The position numbers and the translations under genes are program-made. DNA of 64,000 bases from NCBI GenBank assembly GCA_026770705.1, contig JANJGN010000052.1, positions 3,534,001 through 3,598,000 of the forward strand, given 5' to 3'. Each line of letters begins with the position of its first letter. The stretch's first letter is position 1. Below are positions 4,746-63,111 of the stretch, piece after piece. Below the pieces are notes generated by a model. That model was not told where the DNA came from and did not search any database. It saw nothing but the letters and a program-made list of their open reading frames with translations. The stretch comes from Isurus oxyrinchus (taxonomy: Eukaryota).

Positions 4746-5148
4746 ATAGGAACCACTGCCTTAGACACTGAGGATCTAGGACAGCTAGGCCAATTCATGA
4801 TTCATGATGGTGATAATGGGGGAATTCTGAAGGCTCCTAATCCATTGTCCTACGTTGTAAATCAGCAGTGAACTCACTTCAATTAGTGTGTCTTGTAGAC
4901 ACTGTGTTGGGTGGCAGACTGACTTCACTAAATAGGTACCTGAGGGTCATGAGCCAATTTAGAATGAACTTGTCCACTCCTGTGTCCGGAATTCTCTTCA
5001 ATCTGTTGTGAAACCTTGGGGCATTCATTGTGTGACCTGTGGATTATCCAGACTGCAGCCTGTGTGCCCCAGTGATGGAGGGGGTGAATATTGAGTCTAG
5101 TGGATTGAGAAAACATTCAGAGTTAAATATTGATATTTCTCTCCCTAG

Positions 5149-5523
5149 TTGGACTATCACAAGTGTGGAAAGGTTACACTCCAGGAGAGGTGACAGCGCA
5201 GGAAGGTTCGTGTGTACAGATTCCATGTAATTACAGTTATCCATCATATTTAGTAGCGAGATCACCAGTCGGAATCTGGTATATGAGAAGGAATTGGGAA
5301 AAATGGAATGAACGGTCTATAGCCTTTCACTCCAAGGATCATAATCGCGAGTTACCACAGTTCCACCATCGGACCCAGCTGTCTGGAGACCTGAAAGATG
5401 GCGACTGTTCCCTGATTATAAACAACATCAGACGGGAAGATGCAGGATATTATTTATTCAGCCTAGAATTTGACAACAGGAATAGATACAACGACCGTCC
5501 TGAAACCCAGCTTCACGTTTCTG
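5149..5523 (+). CDS. Siglec gene A, V-set exon V0 (essential Arg replaced by Ser)
   Basis: ctccctAG acceptor, G|GTAAGT donor, 375 nt, phase 1-1. Siglec V motifs VTAQEGSCVQIPC, GIWY, LSGDLKDGDCSLII; F strand reads YYLFSLE. Confidence 0.92.
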
Positions 5524-5689
5524 GTAAGTGCTGTGTTATAATTACTCAACAATTCACATCCAACACTCAATGGGAAATAATAGTGTTTGATTTGCTTGTT
5601 TTTTGGCCGTGTTAACCAGCGCCACTATTTTTAATGATTTGTCTATTTCTGCTCCCAGATCCATAAGCTTATTGTGTGTGATTGAATCC

Positions 5690-7520: not shown

Positions 7521-8927
7521 TATAAGTTGTTGCCCTTTGACCCTCGACCCCAGATTGAGTCTTATTTTTGAGGGAATGTACAACCTGCTTAGATTTCTGA
7601 CCAAAGTGTCATTTGATTATTTTTATTGAGCGAATGCCAAGCCCCGATACCGAGCGAGAGCCTCCTCATTTGCTGAGTTCAAGGTGATGAGTCAGCCCCT
7701 TAGTCCGTAGAGGGGATTCTCCTCGGTAATGTACAGCCTTGTTTGTGTCTCTCCACAAGCGCATGAGGGATTTGTACAGAGGCTGCAGCGCTGGAGGGGG
7801 TCTGCACAGGGGTCCTGGCCTGTCCTGAGCTGGTTTTAGCAAGGACCACTCTGGCCTTGGCAGCTGAAAGCCAGCCATTGGACAGACAGGGCCTGTCACA
7901 AGGAGCCTGTTAGTCACTCCCCCCCGTGTCTCCTGTGCTCGGATCCAGACCATGTTGGCTGGTGGATCTGGCTCAGGAAGGGTCCTCCCCATGGGACCCC
8001 CAGATGGAAGGTGGGTCGAGCGGGTCAGTCACTTGCATGTTTATTCTGCAGCTTTAATATTTTAAGAAGGTAAGAATGTAGGAACATAAGAAATAGGGAC
8101 AGCAGCAGGCCATTCGGCCCCTCCAGCCTGCCCTCGCTGATCTGGTTGTGGCCTTAACTCCATTTTCCTGCCTGTCCCCCAAACCCTTGACTCCCTTGTC
8201 GATCAAAAACCTGCCTCACTCAGCCTTGAGTCTATTCAATGGCCCAGCCTCCACTGCTCTCTGGGGAAGAGAATTCCACAGGCTAGCGCCCCTCTGAGAG
8301 AGGAAATTCCTCCTCATCTCAGTCTTAAATGGGAGAGTCCTCATTCCGAAACTGTGCTCCCTGGTTCTAGATTCCCCCACGAGGGGGAAACATCCTCCCA
8401 GCATCCACCCTGTCAAGCCCCCTCGGAATTGGATATGTTTCAATAAGGTCACCCCTCATTCTTCTAAACTCCAATGGATACAGGCCCAACCTGCTCAACA
8501 TTTCCTCACAGGACAAACCCTTTAATCCCAGGAATCAGCCCAGTGAAGCTTCTCTGAACTGCCTGTACACAATGATCCTGTTACAATCTCACTAACGCCC
8601 TGTGCAGCTGTTGCAAGACTTCCCTCCTTTTATACTCCATCCCTTTGCAATAAAGGCCAACATTCCACTTGCCTTCCTCATTCCGTGGTGTTCCTGAATG
8701 CTGACTTTCTGTGATTCATGTACAAGGACACCCAGATCCCTCTGTACTGCATTCTGCAGCCTGTCTCCATTTAAATAATATCCTGTTTTTCTATTCTTCC
8801 TGCCAAAATAATTTGTTGCCATTCTCCTCAGTATTGACCATCCCCCCAATTCAGCCTCATCTGTAAATTTTGAGTCTAGTGGATCCAGAAACCATCCAGA
8901 GATAAATATTGAGATTTCTCTCCCCAG

Positions 8928-9296
8928 TTGGACTGTCACAAGAGTGGAAAGGTGACACTCCACGAGAGGTGACAGCTCAGGAAGGTTCGTGTGTACAGAT
9001 TCCATGTCATTACAGTTATCCATCGTGTCTGGAAAACCAACCGCGAGGTGGACTCTGGTTTAATAATGAGAAACAGATTCCCTGGGCTCCCATTGCCTTT
9101 CACTCCAAGGATCACAGTCACGAGTTACCACGGTTCCGCCATCGGACCCGGCTGTCTGGAGACCTGAAAGATGGCGACTGTTCCCTGATTATAAACAACA
9201 TCAGACGGGAAGATGCAGGACCTTATTTTTTCAGAATAGAATTTGACAATGGTCCGAGCCATAACTATTACCCTGTAACCCAGCTTCACGTTTCTG
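8928..9296 (+). CDS. Siglec gene A, V-set exon V1 (subtype a)
   Basis: tccccAG acceptor, G|GTAAGT donor, 369 nt, open. GSCVQIPC, DCSLII and YFFRIE (essential Arg) present. Confidence 0.92.
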
Positions 9297-11230
9297 GTAA
9301 GTGCTGTGTTATAATTACTCAACAATTCTCATTCAACACTCAATGGGAATTAACACAAACTGTGACGTTTACATATTAACACAAAACACAGTTTATTATA
9401 ACACACTGTCTGATTCTCAATAACCTGGTGATAGCTTCCAGTTCAGTCCTAAAGCAATGTCTAATACTCACTTTAATATCAATGATTAAATGTGTTGACT
9501 GTGTCTATCAATGTTATCAGTTTATCCACTCCCATCAATCTCTCAAATCCTGTCTTGAAGTCTGACATATCGACAGAAGAAAGATTTACATTTCTACAGC
9601 GCCTTTCACCACCCTAGACTTCCCACCCTAAACCTCTCCCTCTCCCTCTTCCTCTCCCTCTCTCTCTCTCTCTCTCTGTCTCTTTCTCTGTCTCTCCATA
9701 ACACCGACCTCTTCTGGTCAGCTGTCGCTAATATCTACACGTGTCTGGGTGACATACTTTGTTTTATGACGCTCCTGTGTAGCACCTTGAGGTGATTTGT
9801 CATGTTAAAGTTGTTGTGAAAATATAAGTTGTTGCCCTTTGACTCTCGACCCCAGATCGAGTCTTATTTTTGAGGGAATGTACAACCTCCTTAGATTTCT
9901 GACCAAAATGTCATTTGATTATTTTTATTGAGCGAATGCCAAGCCCCGATACCGAGCGAGAGCCTCCTCATTTGCCGAGTTTAGGGTGATGAGTCAGCCC
10001 CTTAGTCCGTAGAGGGGATTCTCCTCGGTAATGAGCAGCCTTGTTTGTGTCTCTCCACAAGCGCATGAGGGATTTGTACAGAGGCTGCAGCGCTGGAGGG
10101 GGTCTGCACAGGGGTCCTGGCCTGTCCTGAGCCGGTTTTAGCAAGGACAACTCTGGCCTTGGCAGCTGAAAGCCAGCCATTGGACAGACGGGGCCTGTCA
10201 CAAGGAGCCTGTTAGTCACTCCCCCCCCGTGTCTCCTGTGCTCGGATCCAGACCATGTTGGCTGGTGGATCTGGCTCAGGAAGGGTCCTCCCCATGGGAC
10301 CCCCAGATGGAAGGTGGGTCGAGCGGGTCAGTCACTTGCATGTTTATTCTGCAGCTTTAATATTTTAAGAAGGTAAGAATGTAGGAACATAAGAAATAGG
10401 GACAGGAGCAGGCCATTCGGCCCCTCCAGCCTGCTCTCACTGATCTGGTTGTGGCCTTAACTCCATTTTCCTGCCTGTCCCCCAAACCCTTGACTCTCTT
10501 GTCGATCAAAAACCTGCCTCACTCAGCCTTGAGTCTATTCAATGGCCCAGCCTCCACTGCTCTCTGGGGAAGAGAATTCCACAGGCTAGCGCCCCTCTGA
10601 GAGAGGAAATTCCTCCTCATCTCAGTCTTAAATGGGAGAGCCCTCATTCTGAAACTGTGCTCCCTGGTTCTAGATTCCCCCACGAGGGGGAAACATCCTC
10701 CCAGCATCCACCCTGTCAAGCCCCCTCGGAATCGGATATGTTTCAATAAGGTCACCCCTCATTCTTCTAAACTCCAATGGATACAGGCCCAACCTGCTCA
10801 ACATTTCCTCACAGGACAAACCCTTTAATCCCAGGAATCAGCCCAGTGAAGCTTCTCTGAACTGCCTGTACACAATGATCCTGTTACAATCTCACTAACG
10901 CCCTGTGCAGCTGTTGCAAGACTTCCCTCCTTTTATACTCCATCCCTTTGCAATAAAGGCCAACATTCCACTTGCCTTCCTCATTCCGTGGTGTTCCTGA
11001 ATGCTGACTTTCTGTGATTCATGTACAAGGACACCCAGATCCCTCTGTACTGCATTCTGCAGCCTGTCTCCATTTAAATAATATCCTGTTTTTCTATTCT
11101 TCCTGCCAAAATAATTTGTTGCCATTCTCCTCAGTATTGACCATCCCCCCAATTCAGCCTCATCTGTAAATTTTGAGTCTAGTGGATCCACAAACCATCC
11201 AGAGATAAATATTGAGATTTCTCTCCCCAG

Positions 11231-11599
11231 TTGGACTGTCACAAGAGTGGAAAGGTGACACTCCACGAGAGGTGACAGCTCAGGAAGGTTCGTGTGTACA
11301 GATTCCATGTCATTACAGTTATCCATCGTGTCTGGAAAACCAACCGCGAGGTGGACTCTGGTTTAATAATGAGAAACAGATTCCCTGGGCTCCCATTGCC
11401 TTTCACTCCAAGGATCACAGTCACGAGTTACCACGGTTCCGCCATCGGACCCGGCTGTCTGGAGACCTGAAAGATGGCGACTGTTCCCTGATTATAAACA
11501 ACATCAGACGGGAAGATGCAGGACCTTATTTTTTCAGAATAGAATTTGACAATGGTCCGAGCCATAACTATTACCCTGTAACCCAGCTTCACGTTTCTG
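11231..11599 (+). CDS. Siglec gene A, V-set exon V2 (subtype a)
   Basis: Same protein as V1; canonical splice sites; 369 nt. Confidence 0.92.
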
Positions 11600-13537
11600 G
11601 TAAGTGCTGTGTTATAATTACTCAACAATTCACATTCAACACTCAATGGGAATTAACACAAACTGTGACGTTTACATATTAACACAAAACACAGTTTATT
11701 ATAACACACTGTCTGATTCTCAATAACCTGGTGATAGCTTCCAGTTCAGTCCTAAAGCAATGTCTAATACTCACTTTAATATCAATGATTAAATGTGTTG
11801 ACTGTGTCTATCAATGTTATCAGTTTATCCACTCCCATCAATCTCTCAAATCCTGTCTTGAAGTCTGACATATCGACAGAAGAAAGATTTACATTTCTAC
11901 AGCGCCTTTCACCACCCTAGACTTCCCACCCTAAACCTCTCCCTCTCCCTCTTCCTCTCCCTCTCTCTCTCTCTCTCTCTGTCTCTTTCTCTCTGTCTCT
12001 CCATAACACCGACCTCTTCTGGCCAGCTGTCGCTAATATCTCCACATGTGTCTGGGTGACATACTTTGTTTTATGACGCTCCTGTGTAGCACCTTGAGGT
12101 GATTTGTCATGTTAAAGTTGTTGTGAAAATATAAGTTGTTGCCCTTTGACTCTCGACCCCAGATCGAGTCTTATTTTTGAGGGAATGTACAACCTCCTTA
12201 GATTTCTGACCAAAATGTCATTTGATTATTTTTATTGAGCGAATGCCAAGCCCCGATACCGAGCGAGAGCCTCCTCATTTGCCGAGTTTAGGGTGATGAG
12301 TCAGCACCTTAGTCTGTAGAGGGGATTCTCCTCGGTAATGAGCAGCCTTGTTTGTGTCTCTCCACAAGCGCATGAGGGGTTTGTACAGAGGCTGCAGCGC
12401 TGGAGGGGGTCTGCACAGGGGTCCTGGCCTGTCCTGAGCCGGTTTTAGCAAGGACCACTCTGGCCTTGGCAGCTGAAAGCCAGCCATTGGACAGACGGGG
12501 CCTGTCACAAGGAGCCTGTTAGTCACTCCCCCCCCGTGTCTCCTGTGCTCGGATCCAGACCATGTTGGCTGGTGGATCTGGCTCAGGAAGGGTCCTCCCC
12601 ATGGGACCCCCAGATGGAAGGTGGGTCGAGCGGGTCATTCACTTGCATGTTTTTTCTGCATCTTTAATATTTTAAGAAGGTAAGAATGTAGGAACATAAG
12701 AAATAGGGACAGGAGCAGGCCATTCGGCCCCTCCAGCCTGCTCTCACTGATCTGGTTGTGGCCTTAACTCCATTTTCCTGCCTGTCCCCCAAACCCTTGA
12801 CTCCCTTGTCGATCAAAAACCTGCCTCACTCAGCCTTGAGTCTATTCAATGGCCCAGCCTCCACTGCTCTCTGGGGAAGAGAATTCCACAGGCTAGCGCC
12901 CCTCTGAGAGAGGAAATTCCTCCTCATCTCAGTCTTAAATGGGAGAGCCCTCATTCTGAAACTGTGCTCCCTGGTTCTAGATTCCCCCACGAGGGGGAAA
13001 CATCCTCCCAGCATCCACCCTGTCAAGCCCCCTCGGAATCGGATATGTTTCAATAAGGTCACCCCTCATTCTTCTAAACTCCAATGGATACAGGCCCAAC
13101 CTGCTCAACATTTCCTCACAGGACAAACCCTTTAATCCCAGGAATCAGCCCAGTGAAGCTTCTCTGAACTGCCTGTACACAATGATCCTGTTACAATCTC
13201 ACTAACGCCCTGTGTAGCTGTTGCAAGACTTCCCTCCTTTTATACTCCATCCCTTTGCAATAAAGGCCAACATTCCACTTGCCTTCCTCATTCCGTGTTG
13301 TTCCTGAATGCTGACTTTCTGTGATTCATGTACCAGGACACCCAGATCCCTCTGTACTGCATACTGCAGCCTGTCACCATTTAAATTATATCCTGTTTTT
13401 CTATTCTTCCTGACAATATAATTTATTGCCATTCTCCTCAGTATTGACCATCCCCCCAATTCAGCCTCATCTGTAAATATCGGGTTCAGTGGATCCACAA
13501 ACCATTCAGAGTTAAATATTGAGATTTCTCTCCCCAG

Positions 13538-13903
13538 CTGAACCCTCACAAGAGTGGAAAGGTGACACTCCACGAGAGGTGACAGTGCAAGAAGGTTCCT
13601 GTGTACAGATTCCATGTCATTATAGTTATCCATCATGTCTGGAAAACCAACCGCGACGTGGAGTCTGGCTTAATAATGAGGAATGGAGAACATCGTCTAT
13701 AGCCTTTCACTCCAAGGATCACAGTCACGAGTTACCACGGTTCCACCATCGGACCCGGCTGTCTGGAGACCTGAAAGATGGCGACTGTTCCCTGATTATA
13801 AACAACATCACATGGGAAGATGTAGGACCTTATTTTTTCAGAATAGAATTTGACAATGGTCCGAGCCATAACTATTACCCTGTAACCCAGGTTCACGTTT
13901 CTG
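13538..13903 (+). CDS. Siglec gene A, V-set exon V3 (subtype b)
   Basis: 366 nt, open, canonical splice sites. RGVWLNNEEWRTSSIAF, NNITWEDVG, YFFRIE. Confidence 0.92.
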
Positions 13904-15838
13904 GTAAGTGCTGTGTTATAATTACTCAACAATTCACATTCAACACTCAATGGGAATTAACACAAACTGTGACGTTTACATATTAACACAAAACACAGTT
14001 TATTATAACACACTGTCTGATTCTCAATAACCTGGTGATAGCTTCCAGTTCAGTCCTAAAGCAATGTCTAATACTCACTTTAATATCAATGATTAAATGT
14101 GTTGACTGTGTCTATCAATGTTATCAGTTTATCCACTCCCATCAATCTCTCAAATCCTGTCTTGAAGTCTGACATATCGACAGAAGAAAGATTTACATTT
14201 CTACAGCGCCTTTCACCACCCTAGACTTCCCACCCTAAACCTCTCCCTCTCCCTCTTCCTCTCCCTCTCTCTCTCTCTCTCTCTGTCTCTTTCTCTCTGT
14301 CTCTCCATAACACCGACCTCTTCTGGTCAGCTGTCGCTAATATCTACACGTGTCTGGGTGACATACTTTGTTTTATGACGCTCCTGTGTAGCACCTTGAG
14401 GTGATTTGTCATGTTAAAGTTGTTGTGAAAATATAAGTTGTTGCCCTTTGACTCTCGACCCCAGATCGAGTCTTATTTTTGAGGGAATGTACAACCTCCT
14501 TAGATTTCTGACCAAAATGTCATTTGATTATTTTTATTGAGCGAATGCCAAGCCCCGATACCGAGCGAGAGCCTCCTCATTTGCCGAGTTTAGGGTGATG
14601 AGTCAGCACCTTAGTCTGTAGAGGGGATTCTCCTCGGTAATGAGCAGCCTTGTTTGTGTCTCTCCACAAGCGCATGAGGGGTTTGTACAGAGGCTGCAGC
14701 GCTGGAGGGGGTCTGCACAGGGGTCCTGGCCTGTCCTGAGCCAGTTTTAGCAAGGACAACTCTGGCCTTGGCAGCTGAAAGCCAGCCATTGGACAGACGG
14801 GGCCTGTCACAAGGAGCCTGTTAGTCACTCCCCCCCGTGTCTCCTGTGCTCGGATCCAGACCATGTTGGCTGGTGGATCTGGCTCAGGAAGGGTCCTCCC
14901 CATGGGACCCCCAGATGGAAGGTGGGTCGAGCGGGTCATTCACTTGCATGTTTTTTCTGCAGCTTTAATATTTTAAGAAGGTAAGAATGTAGGAACATAA
15001 GAAATAGGGACAGGAGCAGGCCATTCGGCCCCTCCAGCCTGCCCTCACTGATCTGGTTGTGGCCTTAACTCCATTTTCCTGCCTGTCCCCCAAACCCTTG
15101 ACTCTCTTGTCGATCAAAAACCTGCCTCACTCAGCCTTGAGTCTATTCAATGGCCCAGCCTCCACTGCTCTCTGGGGAAGAGAATTCCACAGGCTAGCGC
15201 CCCTCTGAGAGAAGAAATTCCTCCTCATCTCAGTCTTAAATGGGAGAGCCCTCATTCTGAAACTGTGCTCCCTGGTTCTAGATTCCCCCACGAGGGGGAA
15301 ACATCCTCCCAGCATCCACCCTGTCAAGCCCCCTCGGAATCGGATATGTTTCAATAAGGTCACCCCTCATTCTTCTAAACTCCAATGGATACAGGCCCAA
15401 CCTGCTCAACATTTCCTCACAGGACAAACCCTTTAATCCCAGGAATCAGCCCAGTGAAGCTTCTCTGAACTGCCTGTACACAATGATCCTGTTACAATCT
15501 CACTAACGCCCTGTGCAGCTGTTGCAAGACTTCCCTCCTTTTATACTCCATCCCTTTGCAATAAAGGCCAACATTCCACTTGCCTTCCTCATTCCGTGTT
15601 GTTCCTGAATGCTGACTTTCTGTGATTCATGTACCAGGACACCCAGATCCCTCTGTACTGCATACTGCAGCCTGTCACCATTTAAATTATATCCTGTTTT
15701 TCTATTCTTCCTGACAATATAATTTATTGCCATTCTCCTCAGTATTGACCATCCCCCCAATTCAGCCTCATCTGTAAATATCGGGTTCAGTGGATCCACA
15801 AACCATTCAGAGTTAAATATTGAGATTTCTCTCCCCAG

Positions 15839-16204
15839 CTGAACCCTCACAAGAGTGGAAAGGTGACACTCCACGAGAGGTGACAGTGCAGGAAGGTTCC
15901 TGTGTACAGATTCCATGTCATTATAGTTATCCATCATGTCTGGAAAACCAACCGCGACGTGGAGTCTGGCTTAATAATGAGGAATGGAGAACATCGTCTA
16001 TAGCCTTTCACTCCAAGGATCACAGTCACGAGTTACCACGGTTCCACCATCGGACCCGGCTGTCTGGAGACCTGAAAGATGGCGACTGTTCCCTGATTAT
16101 AAACAACATCACATGGGAAGATGCAGGACCTTATTTTTTCAGAATAGAATTTGACAATGGTCCGAGCCATAACTATTACCCTGTAACCCAGGTTCACGTT
16201 TCTG
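15839..16204 (+). CDS. Siglec gene A, V-set exon V4 (subtype b)
   Basis: 366 nt, open, canonical splice sites; YFFRIE. Confidence 0.92.
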
Positions 16205-18139
16205 GTAAGTGCTGTGTTATAATTACTCAACAATTCGCATTCAACACTCAATGGGAATTAACACAAACTGTGACGTTTACATATTAACACAAAACACAGT
16301 TTATTATAACACACTGTCTGATTCTCAATAACCTGGTGATAGCTTCCAGTTCAGTCCTAAAGCAATGTCTAATACTCACTTTAATATCAATGATTAAATG
16401 TGTTGACTGTGTCTATCAATGTTATCAGTTTATCCACTCCCATCAATCTCTCAAATCCTGTCTTGAAGTCTGACATATCGACAGAAGAAAGATTTACATT
16501 TCTACAGCGCCTTTCACCACCCTAGACTTCCCACCCTAAACCTCTCCCTCTCCCTCTTCCTCTCCCTCTCTCTCTCTCTCTCTCTGTCTCTTTCTCTCTG
16601 TCTCTCCATAACACCGACCTCTTCTGGTCAGCTGTCGCTAATATCTACACGTGTCTGGGTGACATACTTTGTTTTATGACGCTCCTGTGTAGCACCTTGA
16701 GGTGATTTGTCATGTTAAAGTTGTTGTGAAAATATAAGTTGTTGCCCTTTGACTCTCGACCCCAGATCGAGTCTTATTTTTGAGGGAATGTACAACCTCC
16801 TTAGATTTCTGACCAAAATGTCATTTGATTATTTTTATTGAGCGAATGCCAAGCCCCGATACCGAGCGAGAGCCTCCTCATTTGCCGAGTTTAGGGTGAT
16901 GAGTCAGCACCTTAGTCTGTAGAGGGGATTCTCCTCGGTAATGAGCAGCCTTGTTTGTGTCTCTCCACAAGCGCATGAGGGGTTTGTACAGAGGCTGCAG
17001 CGCTGGAGGGGGTCTGCACAGGGGTCCTGGCCTGTCCTGAGCCGGTTTTAGCAAGGACAACTCTGGCCTTGGCAGCTGAAAGCCAGCCATTGGACAGACG
17101 GGGCCTGTCACAAGGAGCCTGTTAGTCACTCCCCCCCGTGTCTCCTGTGCTCGGATCCAGACCATGTTGGCTGGTGGATCTGGCTCAGGAAGGGTCCTCC
17201 CCATGGGACCCCCAGATGGAAGGTGGGTCGAGCGGGTCAGTCACTTGCATGTTTTTTCTGCAGCTTTAATATTTTAAGAAGGTAAGAATGTAGGAACATA
17301 AGAAATAGGGACAGGAGCAGGCCATTCGGCCCCTCCAGCCTGCTCTCACTGATCTGGTTGTGGCCTTAACTCCATTTTCCTGCCTGTCCCCCAAACCCTT
17401 GACTCTCTTGTCGATCAAAAACCTGCCTCACTCAGCCTTGAGTCTATTCAATGGCCCAGCCTCCACTGCTCTCTGGGGAAGAGAATTCCACAGGCTAGCG
17501 CCCCTCTGAGAGAGGAAATTCCTCCTCATCTCAGTCTTAAATGGGAGAGCCCTCATTCTGAAACTGTGCTCCCTGGTTCTAGATTCCCCCACGAGGGGGA
17601 AACATCCTCCCAGCATCCACCCTGTCAAGCCCCCTCGGAATCGGATATGTTTCAATAAGGTCACCCCTCATTCTTCTAAACTCCAATGGATACAGGCCCA
17701 ACCTGCTCAACATTTCCTCACAGGACAAACCCTTTAATCCCAGGAATCAGCCCAGTGAAGCTTCTCTGAACTGCCTGTACACAATGATCCTGTTACAATC
17801 TCACTAACGCCCTGTGCAGCTGTTGCAAGACTTCCCTCCTTTTATACTCCATCCCTTTGCAATAAAGGCCAACATTCCACTTGCCTTCCTCATTCCGTGT
17901 TGTTCCTGAATGCTGACTTTCTGTGATTCATGTACCAGGACACCCAGATCCCTCTGTACTGCATACTGCAGCCTGTCACCATTTAAATTATATCCTGTTT
18001 TTCTATTCTTCCTGACAATATAATTTATTGCCATTCTCCTCAGTATTGACCATCCCCCCAATTCAGCCTCATCTGTAAATATCGGGTTCAGTGGATCCAC
18101 AAACCATTCAGAGTTAAATATTGAGATTTCTCTCCCCAG

Positions 18140-18505
18140 CTGAACCCTCACAAGAGTGGAAAGGTGACACTCCACGAGAGGTGACAGTGCAGGAAGGTTC
18201 CTGTGTACAGATTCCATGTCATTATAGTTATCCATCATGTCTGGAAAACCAACCGCGACGTGGAGTCTGGCTTAATAATGAGGAATGGAGAACATCGTCT
18301 ATAGCCTTTCACTCCAAGGATCACAGTCACGAGTTACCACGGTTCCACCATCGGACCCGGCTGTCTGGAGACCTGAAAGATGGCGACTGTTCCCTGATTA
18401 TAAACAACATCACATGGGAAGATGCAGGACCTTATTTTTTCAGAATAGAATTTGACAATGGTCCGAGCCATAACTATTACCCTGTAACCCAGGTTCACGT
18501 TTCTG
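18140..18505 (+). CDS. Siglec gene A, V-set exon V5 (subtype b)
   Basis: 366 nt, same protein as V4. Confidence 0.92.
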
Positions 18506-20441
18506 GTAAGTGCTGTGTTATAATTACTCAACAATTCGCATTCAACACTCAATGGGAATTAACACAAACTGTGACGTTTACATATTAACACAAAACACAG
18601 TTTATTATAACACACTGTCTGATTCTCAATAACCTGGTGATAGCTTCCAGTTCAGTCCTAAAGCAATGTCTAATACTCACTTTAATATCAATGATTAAAT
18701 GTGTTGACTGTGTCTATCAATGTTATCAGTTTATCCACTCCCATCAATCTCTCAAATCCTGTCTTGAAGTCTGACATATCGACAGAAGAAAGATTTACAT
18801 TTCTACAGCGCCTTTCACCACCCTAGACTTCCCACCCTAAACCTCTCCCTCTCCCTCTTCCTCTCCCTCTCTCTCTCTCTCTCTCTGTCTCTTTCTCTCT
18901 GTCTCTCCATAACACCGACCTCTTCTGGTCAGCTGTCGCTAATATCTACACGTGTCTGGGTGACATACTTTGTTTTATGACGCTCCTGTGTAGCACCTTG
19001 GAGTGATTTGTCATGTTAAAGTTGTTGTGAAAATATAAGTTGTTGCCCTTTGACTCTCGACCCCAGATCGAGTCTTATTTTTGAGGGAATGTACAACCTC
19101 CTTAGATTTCTGACCAAAATGTCATTTGATTATTTTTATTGAGCGAATGCCAAGCCCCGATACCGAGCGAGAGCCTCCTCATTTGCCGAGTTTAGGGTGA
19201 TGAGTCAGCACCTTAGTCTGTAGAGGGGATTCTCCTCGGTAATGAGCAGCCTTGTTTGTGTCTCTCCACAAGCGCATGAGGGGTTTGTACAGAGGCTGCA
19301 GCGCTGGAGGGGGTCTGCACAGGGGTCCTGGCCTGTCCTGAGCCGGTTTTAGCAAGGACAACTCTGGCCTTGGCAGCTGAAAGCCAGCCATTGGACAGAC
19401 GGGGCCTGTCACAAGGAGCCTGTTAGTCACTCCCCCCCCGTGTCTCCTGTGCTCGGATCCAGACCATGTTGGCTGGTGGATCTGGCTCAGGAAGGGTCCT
19501 CCCCATGGGACCCCCAGATGGAAGGTGGGTCGAGCGGGTCAGTCACTTGCATGTTTTTTCTGCAGCTTTAATATTTTAAGAAGGTAAGAATGTAGGAACA
19601 TAAGAAATAGGGACAGGAGCAGGCCATTCGGCCCCTCCAGCCTGCTCTCACTGATCTGGTTGTGGCCTTAACTCCATTTTCCTGCCTGTCCCCCAAACCC
19701 TTGACTCTCTTGTCGATCAAAAACCTGCCTCACTCAGCCTTGAGTCTATTCAATGGCCCAGCCTCCACTGCTCTCTGGGGAAGAGAATTCCACAGGCTAG
19801 CGCCCCTCTGAGAGAGGAAATTCCTCCTCATCTCAGTCTTAAATGGGAGAGCCCTCATTCTGAAACTGTGCTCCCTGGTTCTAGATTCCCCCACGAGGGG
19901 GAAACATCCTCCCAGCATCCACCCTGTCAAGCCCCCTCGGAATCGGATATGTTTCAATAAGGTCACCCCTCATTCTTCTAAACTCCAATGGATACAGGCC
20001 CAACCTGCTCAACATTTCCTCACAGGACAAACCCTTTAATCCCAGGAATCAGCCCAGTGAAGCTTCTCTGAACTGCCTGTACACAATGATCCTGTTACAA
20101 TCTCACTAACGCCCTGTGTAGCTGTTGCAAGACTTCCCTCCTTTTATACTCCATCCCTTTGCAATAAAGGCCAACATTCCACTTGCCTTCCTCATTCCGT
20201 GTTGTTCCTGAATGCTGACTTTCTGTGATTCATGTACCAGGACACCCAGATCCCTCTGTACTGCATACTGCAGCCTGTCACCATTTAAATTATATCCTGT
20301 TTTTCTATTCTTCCTGACAATATAATTTATTGCCATTCTCCTCAGTATTGACCATCCCCCCAATTCAGCCTCATCTGTAAATATCGGGTTCAGTGGATCC
20401 ACAAACCATTCAGAGTTAAATATTGAGATTTCTCTCCCCAG

Positions 20442-20807
20442 CTGAACCCTCACAAGAGTGGAAAGGTGACACTCCACGAGAGGTGACAGTGCAGGAAGGT
20501 TCCTGTGTACAGATTCCATGTCATTATAGTTATCCATCATGTCTGGAAAACCAACCGCGACGTGGAGTCTGGCTTAATAATGAGGAATGGAGAACATCGT
20601 CTATAGCCTTTCACTCCAAGGATCACAGTCACGAGTTACCACGGTTCCACCATCGGACCCGGCTGTCTGGAGACCTGAAAGATGGTGACTGTTCCCTGAT
20701 TATAAACAACATCAGACGGGAAGATGCAGGACCTTATTTTTTCAGAATAGAATTTGACAATGGTCCGAGCCATAACTATTACCCTGTAACCCAGGTTCAC
20801 GTTTCTG
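20442..20807 (+). CDS. Siglec gene A, V-set exon V6 (b/a mosaic)
   Basis: 366 nt, open. Subtype-b 5' half with the a/V0-type NNIRREDAG. Confidence 0.92.
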
Positions 20808-21535
20808 GTAAGTGCTGTGTTATAATTACTCAACAATTCACATTCAACACTCAATGGGAAACAACACAAACTGTGACGTTTACATATTAACACAAAACAC
20901 AGCTTATTATAACACACTGTCTGATTCTCAATAACCTGGTGATCGCTTCCAGTTCAGTCCTAAAGCAACCTCTAATACTCACTTTAATATCAATGATTAA
21001 ATATATTGACTGTGTCCATCAATGTTATCAGGTTATCCACTCCCATCAATCTCTCTAATCCTGTCTCGAAGTCTGACTTAGCGACAGAAGAAAGATTCAC
21101 ATTTCTGTAGCACTTTTCACCACCTCAGCATGGACCAAATCACTTCACAGCCAATGAGTTGATTCCTGAATTTTAGTTACTATTGTAATGTGGGAAACAC
21201 AGCAACCAATTTGCGCACAGCAAGCTCCCACAAATTGCAAAGTAAAAAATGGCCTAGATCGCTGAGGGACTGATGGGTTAGTGCACTCCAAACTCTGGTC
21301 TGCTCCACCACCCTCACCCACTATTATCAGTTCAAGTGTCTCGGAGTGAACGTGTATTAAGCTGAGAGACAGAAACACCAAAGTCTCAAAGCAGGAAATT
21401 CTCTCCTAATCATTGTAACCTCTCAGATCTGATATCATCCTTGTAAAAGTGCTTTTTCTTGTGGGACTGTGATTTCTATTTGAACTGATGCTTCACGTTA
21501 TATTTCTCTAAAAGGATCCATTCTCTGTCTGTTAG

Positions 21536-21832
21536 ATTTCACAGATAAACCCATGATATTCCCTGCTGAAATTATTGCAGGAAAGCGTGTGGATGTAAGC
21601 TGCACCTTCAACACAACGTGCAATGGAACAGCAGCACCTGTCTTAACCTGGGACACTCCCACTGACGTACCTGTATCAGTCTCAAACACTGTAACTCAGC
21701 ATGGTGTCACTCTGACCTATACTTCTGTTCTGACCCTGATCCCATCACTCAAACACCACAGACACAATCTCAGCTGCAGAGTGAGATATCCATCTGTTTC
21801 ATCGGAGCGGACCCTCGTACTAACTATGCAAG
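21536..21832 (+). CDS. Siglec gene A, C2-set domain 2 exon
   Basis: gttAG acceptor, G|GTAAGT donor, 297 nt, phase 1-1. DFTDKPMIFP..VSCTFNTTCNG..LTW..SVLTLIP..HHRHNLSCRV matches Siglec domain 2, including the extra interdomain Cys. Confidence 0.92.
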
Positions 21833-22155
21833 GTAAGTACGGACACCCTTCATTCTACATCAGCACTCCCTCAGCGCTGACCCTCTGACAGTGCAGCCCG
21901 TTCTCAGTGTCCACATTCTCATGCCTCTCAAAGTGCTTCACAGTCGATAGAAGTTAACTGATCTTTATTTGATTGTTGCTGAATGAAGAGACAAGCTGTC
22001 TAAACTTTGCATCTCACACACATTATTTTCCATGGCAACACCTCCTCCAATCAGAGACCACTTGCTGATTAACCAGCACTCTCTTCCCTTTAAATATAAA
22101 TTGTTGTTCACTTTCTGTTGGTAAACCTGCAATCTGTCTTGTTGAGTCCAGTCCT

Positions 22156-22307
22156 GACATCTGAATATCACAATGAACAGAACAAGTTCCAACAATGAGC
22201 TGTGGTTGGTGATTCCTCACGTTACATCCAGGGACACTGGAGACTATCAGTGTGCTCAGAGAATGAACATGGAGCAGTGGAGGGGTTCATAACCATCACT
22301 GTGGAAC
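22156..22307 (+). pseudogene. Broken C2 (domain 3) exon remnant of gene A
   Basis: Near-identical to the 3' half of the gene B C2 exons (MNRTSSNNELWLVIPHVTSRDTGDYQC..EHGAVEGFITITVE). The 5' half is missing and there is a 1-nt deletion after YQC. Confidence 0.85.
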
Positions 22308-23421
22308 GTTAGTTAAGACAAACTTCAACATCTCTCTCAGATTGAAACACTACAAAAACACACATAAATATACAGCCTTAAATAGACACCTGCATACACA
22401 CAATCCCACATCTATGAGCACACACAAAGACACACTCACAAACAAACACACTAGCACATACTCCCCTGTGGATTACCTGACCTCCCTCAGTGCTGCACCG
22501 GAGAGTTGACCTGGATTCTGGGATTTGTGTTCCCTTTCATATTTATGGAAGAATATGGAAATTGCAAAGTCTATTACAGACACTCAGATGCACAGAGATA
22601 CTCACAGATACTCTCTGCCTCTCCAACTCTCTATCCTACTTTAAGAACCTTCCTGAAATCTAACTCTTTGACCAGTCACCAGTCCCAATTCCTCCTTACG
22701 TGATTTTGTGTGAAATTTTGTTTGAGTATCTGAGAGTAAGAGGGAAGTGGAGAGGTTTAGGAAGGGAATTCCTGTTGCTGAAAAGCTTACATCAAGTTCT
22801 CAGCTTTCCAGTGCCCATTTTTCACATGATGTCCATGTTCATAATGGGGATTGCCTATGTAAACATCACGCTGTAGTTACACTCTCCCACCAGTGGTAGC
22901 ACGGTAACACTTAACCCTTGCATCTCCAAGCTTTTCAAGCAATTTCACTTCCTAATTTCCTACTATTCACCTCAACCATTCCCTGTGGGAGCGAGTTCCA
23001 TATTCTCCCCTCTCTCTGGGTAAAGATTGGAACTGTTTATTAAGCGGGGGGTGTAAGTCCGTGGGGGAGTCCATCCCGATACTGCCCGATTCGCACACAC
23101 GGCTGAGATGGATTTTCACCCGGCACTAAAGGTTTCCAGAATTTTCTACAGCACAATCCTGTACACAGCGATGGAGAGAAACATTGGACAGGGAGTCCAA
23201 CAGCACAATGATCCATTCTCACCAATGTTCCACGCTAAGGAGAAAGTTCCGATTGTCCACTCTTAGAGTGTTTACAATGAAAACATTCATTCCACATTGA
23301 ATCCCAGTGGATGGGTCAATATTACAGCAAATGTTGCAGTGATATGAAGCTTGATTGTTCAGCCAGAGTGAGAGATTTAAAGCGGAGAGTCAGTGATGAT
23401 TTCTTTCTGTGTGTTCTCTAG

Positions 23422-29362: not shown

Positions 29363-32300
29363 ACAGAAACTGATTTTAAATCTCATGTCTAAGTATTATT
29401 TTTCCTTTGCTTACATTTTAATCCCTGCACCTGATGGCTTTATCGCTTCACATTTAATAACTTTCAGCAGGAGCCACGTTCAAATTGAATGGACAAGCTG
29501 GCTTGGGAGGCCAAAAGGCCTACTCCTGCTTCTGTTTATTTATGTTAGTGTTGTTATGTAGTGGAACTAGAGAGGTTATATCAGTTATGAGAACATTAAG
29601 CAAACAGCAGCAAGAATTGAACACCTACGTTGTGGTTTATGAAAAGGTTTTCAACCTGGTCAACTGGTAAAATCTGTTGAAAGTGGGCTATCATGGCGTG
29701 TGCCCTTTGTGAGATATTTGTAACAACGTTCTCGATGTCGGAACAGCTTGCATTGAACAAAGCTGATCTTTACCCAGAACTTCAGAGGAAGGGGGGACAA
29801 TTGTTCCCTGGTGTGGGGGGCATGGTGGGGGGGGAGGGTGAGGGAGAGACAAGTAGCCTGAAGTACCAAGCCAGACACTTTGTGAAGACAAAAGTTGTTT
29901 ATTCATTTTTTTTTACAAATCATAATCTTTACAATTAAAGACCCGACAAGATAATGGTGAATCATGAACACATTGTCGGGGTGAATCTGTGCCCGGGAGC
30001 ATAAAGCAGCAAAATCAGGAGCCCGCTTTACATCTCTCTGAATTTTAACTATCATTAACCCCAGTAACATCCATTCAAATGACTTAGTCATAAGATTCCT
30101 CACACATTCACTTGCACACTCACACACCCACACCCACACAGACACACTGACACACTCACTCATTCACATTGACACACACTGACACAGTCACACACACCCA
30201 CACAGACACACTGACACACTCACTCATTCACATTGACACACACTGAAACAGTCACACACACCCACACAGACACACTGACACACTCACTCATTCACATTGA
30301 CACACACTGACACAGTCACACACACACATACACACACACACGCTGACACAATCACACACATTCACATTGACACACACATATTGACAGTCACACATACACA
30401 CACACACTCACTCATAAAGACAGACACAAACACAGCCACGCACACACTAACACATACTCACACACACTCACTCACGCACACACACATTGATACACTCAAA
30501 CACTCACAGACACACTCACATACTCACACATAAACAAAGAAGTTTACATTATAAACACTATAAACACAGGTTAGATTAAAAGTGCAGTATATTGGTACAA
30601 AGATAGGCCATAATGAAAACTTCAATATGAGATCGTCACTAATAAATCCAATGGGGATTTCAGGAGAAATCTCTTCACCCAGACAGTGGGGAGAATGTGG
30701 AACTCGCTCCCACAGAGAGTAGTTGAGGTGAATAGTGTCGATGTATTTAAGGGGAAGCTGGATAAACACACGAGGGAGAAATGAATAGAAGGATATGGTG
30801 ATGGGGTGAGATGGAGAAGGGGTGGGCGGAGTCTCGTGAGGAGCAGAAACTCCAGCATGGAGCAGATGGGCCAAATGGCTTCTTTCCCTGCTGTAAAACG
30901 CAGGTAAAGTTTCAGTTGGAATTAATGAACAGGGCCTGTGTTAAATAGATTGCTAAGCAGTAGATAAGGAGGGGAGAGGCTGTGGCATGGTGCAGGATGA
31001 CCTTGCGTGAATGAGGCCAGGGTCTAATATCTACAGCAGAGACCACAAGTCTCATTTGGTTCTCTCCAATTACAGCAGTTACAGCAGAATCTGCAGCGCT
31101 GCTGTCTGCTCATTCTGTTCTGGTGCTGCAGCAAGGAGCCCTGGAAAAGCAGGAGGACAATAGGTGAGAACATTCCGGAAAGAAAGAAGGCATCATTTCA
31201 ATCAGGCGCGTCATTGGAAGGAGGATGGCGCATTTCTATAGCGCCTTTCCCCTCCTCAGGATGGCCCAAAGTGTTCCACAGCTGAAGGAAGGACTTTTTC
31301 TGAAGTGAGCTCACCGCTGTAATGTAGGAAACGCAGCAGGCAATTCACGCACAGCAAGATCCCACAAACAGAAATGTGATAATGGCCCCGATTTTCAGTT
31401 TTTTACCAATGTCAGTTGAGGGATAAATGTTTGCCCCAGGAAAGCAGACATAACTGCATCTCATCCACCCCCCACCACCCCCTCCACACATACCCCCAAC
31501 TCCTGACGCACTTCATCTAAATTGTGGCCATGGAATCCTCTATATCCACCTGAGAGGGCAGATGTTGTCTCAGTTTAACATCTCATCTGAAAGACAGCGC
31601 CTTCAACAGTGCAGCACCCCCTCAGTACTGACCCTCCGACTGTGCAGCACCCCCTCAGTACTGACCCTCCGACTGTGCAGTCCCCCGCCGGTACTGACCC
31701 TCTGACAGTGCAGCACTTCAAGACTGACCGTCTGACAATGCAGCACCCCCTCAGTACTGACCCTCCGACTGTCCTGCCCCCCCGCCGGTACTGACCCTCC
31801 GACAGCTCGGTAATTTCTCAATTACGCCTGGTGGTCCTTTTAACTCAGAGCTGTGAGTTGCAGAGAATCGAGCAGACACCCTGAACTGACACTTGCAGTG
31901 CAAGTACTGGGAGCGCGCTGGTCATTATCATGCTGCTGTCTGTGGGATCTTACTGTGCGCCAATGGCTGATTCTTTTCCCACAGTACATCAGTGACCTCA
32001 CATGAAAGAAAAAAAGCACTTGATTGTCTGCGAAACAGTTTGGGACGTCCTGATGTGTTGGAAGGCGCTAGAGAAATGCAAGTCCTCTTTGTCTTTCACT
32101 CGATCCTCTAAGGTGTCTGTTGATTAACCAGCCTCTCGGTGTATGATGTAGGCCTGGTTATAAACAGTTAGAAGGATCAAATATCAAAAGTGCTTTGGCT
32201 GACAGTCAAACCGATTGTGCATTCGGAGAGATTAGATATGGTCTGCACACAATGACTCCAGTCTCTGGCACTGACTGCCGCCTGGGGTCTCCCTTCCACA

Positions 32301-32861
32301 TAACACTCACAACTTGCATTTACACAGCGCCTCTGACATTGCAAAATGTCCCAGCCCACATTACCGGAGCGTAAATCAGAGAGAAGTCTAACACTGAGTC
32401 ACATATGGAGATATTAGGGATAGGTGACCAAAAGCTTGGTCAAAGATGTCAGTTTTTAAGGAGCGTCTTAAAGGAGAGAGAGAGAGAGAGGCAGAGAGGT
32501 TAAGGGAGGGTATTCCGGAGCTCAGGGCCCCAGGCAGCTGAAGGCACGGCCGCCAATGGTGGAGCGATGGGAATCAGGGGGACCCGGGAGATGCAGTAAT
32601 GTCAGAGATTTTGGAGGAACATCGGGACCGGAGGAGGTGTTCTCCTGCTCCATATCTCTCTCTCTCTTCCTCTCATCCACTCCTCCTCTCCCTGTCTCTC
32701 TCTCTCCTACTCTTCCTCTCAATTGCCCTCTCTCCCAATCTTTCTCTCCTCTCTCCCTTTTCCTGTCTCTCTCCCTCTCTCTCTCCCTGTCTCATTCTCC
32801 CACTCTGTATCTCTCCCTCTCTCTCACACTATTTTTGTACCTTTCGCTCACTCTGTAACTC
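29363..32861 (+). repeat. Left arm of a large inverted duplication (partner 60593-64000, running off the window)
   Basis: Reverse-complement match along its length. Paired ORFs 29693/63425, 29903/63200, 32177/61094, 32556/60523. Confidence 0.95.
31024..31140 (-). CDS. HAMP: Hepcidin exon 3 (copy L)
   Basis: cttttccAG acceptor. GSLLQHQNRMSRQQRCRFCCNCCNWREPNETCGLCCRY* has the 8-Cys hepcidin pattern C-xx-CC-x-CC-..-C-xx-CC. Confidence 0.92.
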   Translation of the reverse strand, partial: GSLLQHQNRMSRQQRCRFCCNCCNWREPNETCGLCCRY

Positions 32862-33342
32862 TCCCTTTCCTGTTAATTTCTCTCTCTTGGACAATCTCTC
32901 TTCCCTTTTCACTTTCCCTCACTCTGCATCTCTTCTTTAATTTCTCCCTCTGTCACTCTCTCCCACCTATGTTCTTTCCCTTTCACCCCTCCCCGTCCCA
33001 CTCTCTGTCTCTCTCTTCCAATCCCTCCCTCCCCTATTCCATCCCTCTCTCCGACTCTCGACTCCCAGCCTCTCTTTAACCCACTCCCAGGCTGGATCAG
33101 TCTCCCTCTCACTATTCCCGGCGTGGGTTACATTTAAAATTCCTGTGGGGATATGTTCACTTCCTTGGAATTGCCTCTTCCCAGCTTTGCAAAAAAAGTT
33201 GGGGGGGGGGGCTCGATTTCAAACCTGCCTCCTGAGTATAACCGAGACAGACTGCCACTGAAATCAGCTTGAAATCAGAAAACTTTCTGTGGAAGAAACG
33301 AGCAGGGAGAAACCTTAAAATAAGGAATGAATTTCCACCTAC

Positions 33343-33399
33343 CGTGTCCGGGGAATCCACAGATTTCTCAATCGTCGAAGAACCTAAAGCAGTGTCAAC
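33343..33399 (-). CDS. HAMP: Hepcidin exon 2 (prodomain)
   Basis: ttctttctttttgcAG acceptor, ACG|GTAGGT donor, 57 nt. Only phase 0 is open: VDTALGSSTIEKSVDSPDT. Size and phase fit the short middle exon of hepcidin genes. Confidence 0.78.
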
Positions 33400-34139
33400 C
33401 TGCAAAAAGAAAGAATTTATCAGGGAGAAAGTGAGAGGAGGATTGAGGGAGAGGGAGAGAGAGAGAGAGAGGTACAGGAGAGAGAGGGGGAGGAGGACAG
33501 ACTTGCATTTCTCTAACGCCTTTCACCACATCCCAAAGCATTTCACAGCCACTGAAGGATGTTTTTGAAGTGCACTCACACTGTAGGAAATGTGGCAGCT
33601 GATTTGTGCACAGCAAGATCCCACAAATAGCAATGTGATCATGGCCTAGATCATCTGTTTTTGGTGATGTTGGGTGAGGGATAAATATTGGTGCCAGGAC
33701 ACCGGGGAGAACACCCCCTGCTCTTCCTCCAAATAGTGGCTGTGGGATCTTTCACACCCGCCCGAGAGGGCAGACGAGGGACTCGGTTTAATGTCTCATT
33801 CAACATTGTTGTGCTCCCTCAGTACTAACCCTTTGACACTGCAGCACTCCCTTAGTATTAACCCTTCGATAGTGCTGCGCTCCCTCAGTACTGTCCCTCC
33901 GTCAGTGCAGCGCTACCTCAGTACTGACCCTCCGACAGTGCAACACTTCCACAGTACTGACCCTGTAACAATGCAGCACTTCCTCAGTACTGACCTCCGA
34001 CAGTATAGCACTCACTCAGTACTGTCCCTCCAATAGTGCAACACTTCCACACTACTGACCCTCTGACAGTGCAGCACTCCCTCAGCACGGAGTGTTGACC
34101 GACGTTATGGGACTGAATTCCCTGGAGTGAGACTCAGAC

Positions 34140-35340
34140 CAGAGATTTAGGTAGGGTTGTTCCGGCTGGAGGAGGTTACAGAGATAGGGAGGGTTGTAGA
34201 GGCTGTAGGAGATAACAGAGATAGGGAGGGTTCTAGAGGCTGCAGGAGGTTACAGAGATAGGGAGGGTTGTAGGGGCTGTAGGAGGTTACAGAGATAGGG
34301 AGGTGAGTAGGGGCTGTAGGAGGTTAAAGAGATGGGGGGGTTGTGGGGGCTGGAGGAGGTTACAGAGGTAGGGAGGGTTGTAGAGGCTGGAGGAGGTTAC
34401 CAAAATAGATACTGTTGTAGGGGCCACAGTAGGTTACAGAGATAGGGAGAGTTATAGTGTGGAGAGGACGTTATAGAGTTCATGAGCATTGTAGGGGCTG
34501 GAGGAGGTTACAGTGATTCTGAGGGTCGTGGGGCCTGGAGGAGGTTACAGAGATAGGGAGGGTTGTAGGGTCTGGAGGAGGTTACAGAGATAGGGAGGGT
34601 TGTAGGGTCTGGAGCAGGTTACAGAGATAGGGAGGGTTGTAGGGTCTAGAGGAGGTTACAGTGATCATGAGGGTTGTGGGGCCTGGGGGAGGTTACAGAG
34701 ATAGGTAGGGTTGTAGGTGCTGGAGGAGGTTACAGAGATAGGGAGGGTTGTAGGATCTGGAGGAGGTTACAGTGATCGTGAGGGTTGTGGGGCCTGGGGG
34801 AGGTTACAGAGATAGGGAGTGTTGTGGGGACTGTAGGAGGTTACATAGATAGGGAGGGTTGTCGGGTCTGGAGGAGGTTACAGAGATAGGGAGGGTTATA
34901 GGGACTGGAGGAGGTTACAGAGATAGGGAGGGTTGTAGAGACTGTAGGATGTTACAGAGATAGGGATTGTTGTAGGGGCTGGAGGATGTTACAGAGATAG
35001 GGAGGGTTGTAGGGGCTGGAGGAGGTTACAGAGATAGGGAGGGTTGTAGGGGCTGGAGGAGGTTACAGAGATAGGGAGGGTTGTACGGGCTGGAGGAGGT
35101 TACAGAGATAGGGAGGGTTGTAGGGGCTGGAGGAAGTTACAGAGATAGGGAGGGTTGTAGGGGCTGGAGGAGGTTACAGAGATAGGGAGGGGTGTAGGGG
35201 CTGGAGGAGGTTACAGAGATAGGGAGGGTTGTAAGGCCTGGTGGAGGTTACAGAGATAGGGAGGGTTGTAGGGGCTGGAGGAGTTTACAGAGATAGGGAG
35301 GGTTGTACGGGCTGGAGGAGGTTACAGAGATAGGGAGTGG
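34140..35340 (-). repeat. ~37-38-bp LINE-derived minisatellite in hepcidin intron 1
   Basis: Tandem ggaggttacagagatagggagggttgtaggggctgga; the same family occurs at 6760-7200 and 37990-38640. Confidence 0.9.
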
Positions 35341-35539
35341 CTGAGGAGGGATTGAAAACAAGAATGAGAATTTCAGGGGAAATGACAGAAGGAAATGATG
35401 TTAAATTCATAGAGGGCGACAATATTAAAGGCACGAACATAATAATATCAAACTGCGGAAGAGACCAGTCTATCTGGGTGGTAGACGTAGAGTCATGTGC
35501 AAGAAACACCTCACCCAGAGGGACATCTCTTAGCTTAAC

Positions 35540-35631
35540 CTCGACAAGGAGAAGAAGTGACTCAGCTGCAGGGAGAGCAGCAAAGTCAGAGTGAACAAGA
35601 CAAGTCGCCATTTCATCTGGGAGCTTCCCAT
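35540..35631 (-). CDS. HAMP: Hepcidin exon 1 (signal peptide), out of phase with exon 2 as assembled
   Basis: MGSSQMKWRLVLFTLTLLLSLQLSHFFSLS followed by an AG|GTTAAG donor. It is 92 nt (phase 2), whereas exon 2 needs phase 0. Confidence 0.72.
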
Positions 35632-35689: not shown

Positions 35690-35915
35690 GGAGCTTCCTG
35701 CTCTTATACCTGAAACACTTGAAGGGGACAGCCGCGGGTGGGTAGCTGTGTGGTATCACACCCATTTCTGGATATTGCAGTGTCGATGTTCCCTGTCCCA
35801 CTGGCCTGGGACCAGCAGTAAGGTCACTGGGACATTGACTGTCTGGCGCCGAGAACTATCAGTCCCTCCGCAACGCCCTTCACCTTGTGCAAATATGTGT
35901 TCATATTGACGCAAC
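35690..35915 (-). promoter_or_regulatory. Hepcidin proximal promoter motifs
   Basis: TATAAGA at 35708-35702; GTCT+GGCGCC at 35841-35850; TTGTGCAA at 35885-35892; TGACGCAA at 35907-35914. Confidence 0.6.
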
Positions 35916-41030: not shown

Positions 41031-41089
41031 CTGAAAGGCAACAAGGGAGGGGACTGAACATCAAAAAGCAGAATATTACTTCAATGGAG

Positions 41090-57346: not shown

Positions 57347-57379
<33 letters not shown>

Positions 57380-57438
57380 CTGTGTGTGTGTGTGCGTGTG
57401 TGTGTGTGTGAGTGATGTTGGAGTTTGCAGTAACTCAC

Positions 57439-63073: not shown

Positions 63074-63111
<38 letters not shown>

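Follow-up and report, generated by a model that had tools for sequence, protein, structure and literature searches.

A divergent shark hepcidin, probably a HAMP1 duplicate with a HAMP2-like mature peptide

Introduction

In some vertebrates, mostly fish, a second hepcidin gene that does not serve iron control is present, according to a review. In sea bass, ferroportin is lowered by Hamp1 and not by Hamp2 (PMC5665920), and the division of labour between HAMP1 and HAMP2 has been described as an acanthopterygian invention, HAMP2 being reported only from acanthopterygians and placed after the teleost genome duplication (PMC3325200). In this study, we describe a hepcidin locus in a stretch of 64,000 nucleotides (nt) from the shark Isurus oxyrinchus (assembly GCA_026770705.1, contig JANJGN010000052.1, positions 3,534,001 to 3,598,000 of the forward strand), hereafter the window, in which position 1 is the first letter, and compare it with these described systems and with a hepcidin of the basking shark (Cetorhinus maximus).

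The iron motif of hepcidin has been given as Q-S/I-H-L/I-S/A-L (PMC8502971). In the ferroportin complex, the hepcidin loop is largely extracellular and both termini are buried, and some cartilaginous fishes possess a second ferroportin with another residue at C326 (PMC8235187). Hepcidin has been found in the plasma of nurse sharks (PMC9207270), little work has been devoted to shark antimicrobial peptides (PMC6795676), and in PMC3832898 hepcidin appears in a reference only. No publication on a shark hepcidin gene or its duplicate was found in the literature searched, subscription journals lying mostly outside it.

We put a probability of roughly 0.6 on the following reading: the divergent form found here represents a second shark hepcidin gene, probably a duplicate of HAMP1, whose predicted 29-residue, four-disulfide peptide would be cut free after RQKR, is likely to have no part in ferroportin control, is likely to serve host defence, and has come to resemble HAMP2 by separate evolution.

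Sequences and comparisons

Translated exons were scored against Pfam Hepcidin (PF06446), with a cut-off of 27 bits. For the exon 3 region 24 sequencing runs are listed, of which 20 contain part of it and none is recorded as RNA. Contigs of four of the 24 were compared over 30545-33470, that is, exons 2 and 3: X1 (organism A), X6, X18 (organism B) and X20 (organism C). Three of the four cover exon 3, and X20 covers repeats only. Logan contigs drop minor variants. X1, X6 and X18 differ from both window copies at several intron sites; they come from close relatives or other individuals and are no proof about the window's own gene.

Two copies of a hepcidin exon 3 in the window

Two hepcidin exon 3 copies lie within the window, at 31140-31024 on the minus strand (copy 1) and at 62510-62626 on the plus strand (copy 2). 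Copy 1 translates into 38 residues with eight Cys, GSLLQHQNRMSRQQRCRFCCNCCNWREPNETCGLCCRY, and copy 2, the MGRQQL form, into GSLLQRQKRMGRQQLCRFCCNCCNWREPNETCGLCCRY. Both exceed the PF06446 cut-off, with 29.7 and 31.6 bits, and their eight Cys have the C-x2-CC-x-CC-loop-C-x2-CC spacing of the family. By its sequence, the minus-strand gene is a real hepcidin. The features of the locus are as follows.

35540..35631, minus strand: copy 1 exon 1, coding part (signal peptide), 92 nt, ending in phase 2, placed by the basking-shark comparison
33343..33399, minus strand: copy 1 exon 2, pro region of 19 codons, phase 0/0 with AG and GT ends, its 3' end spliced to exon 3 in run X1
31024..31140, minus strand: copy 1 exon 3, with pro tail, decayed furin site, 29-residue 8-Cys mature peptide and stop (PF06446, 29.7 bits)
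31114..31125, minus strand: copy 1 furin site, H-Q-N-R (R-Q-K-R in copy 2, X1, X6 and X18)
31096..31113, minus strand: the N-terminal six mature residues, different in each version seen
31048..31071, minus strand: Cys5-Cys6 loop NWREPNET, 8 residues, with sequon N-E-T at 31048-31056
62510..62626, plus strand: copy 2 exon 3, its MGRQQL N-terminus preceded by an intact RQKR (PF06446, 31.6 bits)
60593..64000, plus strand: inverted duplicate of 29363-32861 (95-99% identity) that begins within intron 2 and continues past the end of the window

An earlier note on this DNA had described eight Cys, a loop NWREPNET and a sequon N-E-T, all of which the translation of 31140-31024 bears out. It had also given the N-terminus as MSRQQR/MGRQQL: both forms are there, and they belong to two separate copies, MSRQQR following HQNR in copy 1 and MGRQQL following RQKR in copy 2. 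Exons 1 and 2 of copy 2 were not found within the window.

Comparison with basking-shark hepcidin

The exon 1 frame search returned two proteins from two candidates, both from a single basking-shark locus, LOC144671611. Its isoform X2, XP_078389754.1, is a complete 88-residue hepcidin (Pfam Hepcidin, 44.8 bits), which NCBI names 'uncharacterized'. Identity to it amounts to 29/30 residues in exon 1, 16/19 in exon 2 and 7/9 in the pro tail of copy 2, so that 52 of the 58 residues of the signal and pro regions agree, and only 4 of the 21 non-Cys residues of the mature peptide do. Judged by this identity, the window sequence belongs among sharks, near Lamniformes. Other searches gave no lead. Word-based protein searches with exon 3, which are insensitive and also missed bony-fish hepcidins sharing CRFCCNCC, yielded no candidate among longer or similar-length proteins. 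The single match of a full phmmer scan, a 577-residue repeat-derived protein, was rejected as spurious, and the ESM Atlas, asked with exon 3 alone, gave only a 0.76 match.

The two shark peptides have in common their exon sizes, the R-x-K-R site, Met1, a mature length of 29 residues, eight Cys and an 8-residue N...T loop. The basking-shark peptide is set apart by its HAMP1-like N-terminus, M-S-H-L-S-V, and by a lysine-rich loop without sequon, whereas the divergent loop carries one Arg and two Glu; net charge and grand average of hydropathy (GRAVY) are +5 and +0.17 in the former and +2 and -0.53 in the latter. The long loop, which had been taken for the atypical feature of this hepcidin, is a shark trait, since the HAMP1-type peptide of the basking shark also has eight residues there. 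As far as the sequences go, what is atypical is the rest of the mature peptide.

At 27596-27701 on the minus strand, downstream of exon 2 and in the same orientation, a fragment of a long interspersed nuclear element matches the final exon of basking-shark isoform X3 at 79-87% identity. It is a weak hint that the two sharks share this locus; the repeat is common, and another copy lies at 52784-52828.

The transcribed form and its HAMP1-type sister

In X1, repeat-free intron bins have a sequencing depth of about 700-2,000, whereas it reaches about 520,000 over exon 3 and 240,000 in the bin with the greater part of exon 2. Contigs of this run connect exons 2 and 3 over a 2,202-nt intron with CT..AC ends. 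This pattern of depth and joint is that of a spliced transcript in one sample; among the joints listed for X6 and X18, none links exon 2 to exon 3. A further X1 joint from exon 2, also with CT..AC ends and a depth of 844, marks a minor cryptic 3' splice site in intron 2 at 32152. RQKR|MGRQQL is the transcribed form, since X1 and X6 agree with copy 2 at each of the four exon 3 sites. The only contig of organism B, with 12 of its 13 differences listed, reads R-Q-K-R followed by M-S-Q-H-Q-F; among those differences, a single silent one falls in the core and none in the loop. The MSRQQR form is in none of the contigs listed for X1, X6 and X18.

A second hepcidin appears in the same run. One X1 contig tracks the window through the pro tail as far as M-S and departs from it before 31108, where similarity to the shark sister stops sharply at the mature N-terminus. 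Its 30 loose letters, none of whose 12-mers matches the window, read in frame H-L-S-I-C-M-Y-C-C-G and agree with the basking-shark peptide at 8 of 10 residues and with copy 2 at 3 of 10. A minority letter at 31127 (17,586 of 144,890 depth) gives Leu, as in the basking shark, and likely belongs to the HAMP1-type transcript. By sequence, then, organism A has both a HAMP1-type and a divergent hepcidin, because a contig end of the M-S-H-L-S type and RQKR|MGRQQL transcripts are found together in X1. The earlier note's proposal of a divergent paralogue thus holds, the M-S-H-L-S peptide occurring in the basking shark and at the X1 contig end beside the divergent form; two outcomes that would have told against it, an ordinary hepcidin standing alone and a gene without expression, do not apply to the close relative behind this run.

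When the ten codons shared by the HAMP1-type end and the divergent form are compared, all three Cys codons agree, as do 7 of 10 third positions, and none of the ten is set apart by a silent change alone. The N-terminal six residues are MSRQQR in copy 1, MGRQQL in copy 2 and organism A, and MSQHQF in organism B. Between organism B and copy 1, 5 of the 18 nt of these codons differ, compared with 3.4% in the flanks (P 2.6e-4). Around the cleavage site, the two window copies show 4 differences in 45 nt, all of them amino-acid changing, against a background of 1.6% (P 0.006).

Together these observations suggest a possible history. The ordinary shark hepcidin would have been duplicated within the shark lineage; one copy would have kept M-S-H-L-S and iron control, while the mature peptide of the other was rebuilt, presumably under positive selection. 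The predicted product of the latter is a secreted peptide of 29 residues with four disulfides, released by furin cleavage behind RQKR. It is likely to act in host defence, as sea bass Hamp2 does, and may be expressed in the liver, have lost ferroportin binding and be antimicrobial.

Integrity of the window copies

The earlier note had proposed a three-exon gene with a clean spliced product. The three exons do match basking-shark hepcidin, and exons 2 and 3 are spliced in X1, but the clean product is not borne out. The exons of copy 1 measure 92, 57 and 117 nt, 266 nt in all, exon 1 joins exon 2 out of frame, and as assembled the first stop comes after 35 codons. Exon 1 of the window ends in phase 2 and is one base short in its last codon, because the basking-shark exon 1 ends S-L-S-K in phase 0. 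No AG that would restore the frame of copy 1 lies between 33460 and the end of exon 2. Two other remedies were considered: the single, weak candidate for a bridging exon in intron 1 (33551-33527) was rejected, as it sits in a dispersed repeat, and an ATG at 35611, in frame with exon 2, is an unlikely rescue, having two ATGs upstream and a poor signal peptide. The furin motif R-x-K/R-R, present in copy 2, X1, X6 and X18, is H-Q-N-R in copy 1.

As assembled, neither window copy is predicted to make the peptide, because copy 1 combines a frameshift with H-Q-N-R and copy 2 is without exons 1 and 2 in the window. The three-exon copy may be a decaying duplicate. The best surviving alternative, which we hold somewhat short of even odds and which is compatible with our reading, goes further: both window copies are dead, copy 1 as a pseudogene and copy 2 as an orphan exon 3, and a working gene lies elsewhere or in relatives. 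Besides the broken frame without a rescuing acceptor and the lack of exons 1 and 2 for copy 2, it is favoured by the contigs, since H-Q-N-R is in none of those listed for X1, X6 and X18 and the entire X1 depth at 31124 (144,889.6 of 144,889.6) has the Arg codon. Against this, the single missing base may be an assembly error, and a minor variant could have been dropped by the Logan contigs; the change around the cleavage site, in which all differences between the copies alter residues, is faster than neutral decay; and copy 1 has new R-x-x-R motifs (RMSR and RQQR) at which the N-terminus could be trimmed. These lie at 31096-31113 and are minimal convertase motifs, R-M-S-R and R-Q-Q-R, so that trimming to the first Cys, if copy 1 is translated, would leave a hepcidin-20-like product.

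As for the duplication itself, the copy-2 duplicate abuts siglec-intron-like sequence at 60524-60593, a junction outside simple repeats and so better explained by a real rearrangement than by a mis-join. Intron 2 of copy 2 contains about 175 inserted nt (61363-61537) that are absent from copy 1 and from the X1, X6 and X18 contigs across 32082. In X6 and X18 the duplicated and the unduplicated parts have similar DNA depth, a hint that the individuals behind these runs lack the partial duplicate, contig depth not being the same as copy number. The DNA runs contain 0.54-0.59 of the words, which is equal to the fraction of copy-1 words also found in copy 2 (0.556).

Iron hormone or defence peptide

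With human hepcidin-25 and fish HAMP1, the divergent hepcidin shares three exons, the signal-pro-mature layout, the furin motif, the 8-Cys spacing, six residues before the first Cys and, in the promoter, GGCGCC, which we take to be the core of the BMP/SMAD response element. Two promoter features were recorded upstream of the ATG.

35703..35708, minus strand: TATA-like TATAAG, about 75 nt upstream of the ATG, predicted from sequence
35845..35850, no strand assigned: GGCGCC, 214-219 nt upstream of the ATG; with 2 in the window against 1.99 expected, only its position is notable

Unlike these hormones, it lacks His3 and Q-S-H-L-S-L or D-T-H-F-P, has a loop of 8 rather than 4-5 residues, and ends in R-Y. 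The iron motif is absent from M-G-R-Q-Q-L, M-S-R-Q-Q-R and M-S-Q-H-Q-F, and the shark sister has a near form, M-S-H-L-S. It is the changed termini rather than the loop that argue against ferroportin control, because in the complex the termini are buried and the loop is largely extracellular. Since a relative transcribes the divergent form alongside an ordinary hepcidin, host defence rather than iron control is likely, and by analogy alone the peptide may be antimicrobial.

In a less probable view, which we consider unlikely, the divergent peptide has remained an iron hormone and is adapted to a different receptor, for instance the second ferroportin found in cartilaginous fishes that has no equivalent of C326. 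Such a receptor is described for some cartilaginous fishes (PMC8235187), and with the loop outside ferroportin in the complex described there, neither loop length nor a glycan need block binding; the promoter has kept GGCGCC, Leu or Phe at position 6 and Phe at position 9 are retained, and the cationic charge is weak. Yet His3 and the S-H-L-S motif are lost, and an N-terminus that differs in every version seen is a poor fit to a conserved host receptor. More speculatively, a split of shark hepcidins independent of that in bony fishes, with residue-by-residue convergence on the teleost HAMP2 core, could have produced a ligand of the C326-less ferroportin, and with it a second hepcidin-receptor pair among vertebrates, or else a glycosylated defence peptide with an N-terminus caught up in an arms race; we regard this wider scheme as improbable.

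The sequon N-E-T is kept in both copies, with no change among the differences listed in X1, X6 and X18. It is one change away from the loop of the sister (K to N), the Thr being shared, and the corresponding position of sea bass Hamp2 holds an N-M-S sequon. It lies 10 residues from the C-terminus, next to Cys6, and occupancy is often poor near the C-terminus and beside Cys. N-glycosylation of this putative site is unlikely but not negligible. A literature search on the glycosylation of fish hepcidin gave no paper that, judged by title, dealt with hepcidin.

Likeness to HAMP2

Acanthopterygian HAMP2, represented by sea bass Hamp2 and bass hepcidin (PDB 1S6W), resembles the divergent form in being a second paralogue beside HAMP1 without the iron motif, and in its CRFCCNCC core, P-N-x-S/T in the loop, C-G-aliphatic-C-C-R-aromatic end and variable N-terminus. 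It differs in its loop of 5 residues, compared with 8 including two Glu and a Trp here, and the prepro region here is of the shark HAMP1 type. A second paralogue without the iron motif beside HAMP1, which is what defines the HAMP2 type, is found in X1, its HAMP1 side being one contig end; descent from the acanthopterygian HAMP2 clade finds no support, and by shared features the closest type is probably shark HAMP1. Among seven non-Cys core residues outside the loop, compared by eye, 5 match sea bass Hamp2, 3 sea bass Hamp1 and 1 the basking-shark peptide. Convergence after a duplication in the shark lineage is the most likely explanation of this likeness, because both shark types agree in Met1, length, loop and the three Cys codons compared, and because HAMP2 is reported only in acanthopterygians. 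Most likely, and again by analogy, the divergent hepcidin works like HAMP2 without belonging to its clade.

That it is instead an ancient orthologue of acanthopterygian HAMP2, already present in the ancestor of jawed vertebrates, and that exons 1-2 and the pro region of the shark paralogues have stayed similar through gene conversion, seems improbable to us. The core matches just given, the P-N-x-S/T loop and the abrupt end of similarity to the shark sister at the mature N-terminus fit such an origin; the Met1, the length of 29 and the 8-residue N...T loop common to both shark types, the identity of their Cys codons and of most third positions, and the reported restriction of HAMP2 to acanthopterygians and its placement after the teleost genome duplication (PMC3325200) do not. 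Finally, it is very improbable that this is the ordinary, sole hepcidin of its lineage with a fast-changing mature peptide: only the divergent exon 3 type is present in the 64-kb window, the flanking siglec array fits the usual HAMP neighbourhood and the BMP-element core is present, but the presence in X1 of a HAMP1-type contig end beside the divergent form contradicts it if that end comes from organism A.

Several points weigh against the reading of a HAMP1 duplicate turned to defence. The charge of +2 and GRAVY of -0.53 make a poor membrane-lytic profile, and the promoter carries the BMP-element core as an iron-regulated gene would. HAMP1-type evidence in organism A consists of one 30-letter contig end from one run; the RNA status of X1 is an automated guess for one sample, which differs from both window copies at several sites. 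Over the ten shared codons, the proportion of nonsynonymous differences (pN 0.46) exceeds that of synonymous ones (pS 0.30) without significance, the rate tests concern regions singled out once the data had been seen, and for the core and loop constraint does not reach significance (P 0.32). The contig of organism B may be chimeric or the result of conversion between the two paralogues, as it has 31127, 31157 and apparently a 22-nt insertion in common with minor X1 contigs. An AlphaFold2 model from a 3-row alignment came out helical at low confidence (predicted local distance difference test score 58.5) and was not used.

Neighbouring genes and repeats

Two further features of the window were recorded.

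5127..22364, plus strand: siglec/CD22-like array of immunoglobulin-type exons, with 7 V-set exons followed by C2-set exons
34148..35337, no strand assigned: 37-nt tandem array of 32 copies in intron 1

Six of the seven V-set exons at 5127-22364 lie in near-identical 2.3-kb repeats (95-99%). Most read Y-F-F-R-I-E at the expected Arg position, the Arg presumably being the sialic-acid-binding one of siglecs, and the first reads Y-L-F-S-L-E. Between the hepcidin copies, at 40747-41130 and 56111-58771 on the minus strand, there are a divergent V-like exon and three tandem C2-set exons, likewise siglec-like. In humans, HAMP lies in a neighbourhood with MAG and CD22.

Implications

Shark hepcidins are poorly annotated, the basking-shark gene being called 'uncharacterized'. 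A separate duplication in sharks, in which the iron-type M-S-H-L-S peptide was kept and its sister was rebuilt towards a HAMP2-like core, would, if true, give a clear example of evolution repeating itself in a hormone with a second role as a defence peptide. Two 29-residue peptides on one scaffold would also offer a handle on what makes hepcidin an iron hormone at the base of the jawed vertebrates.

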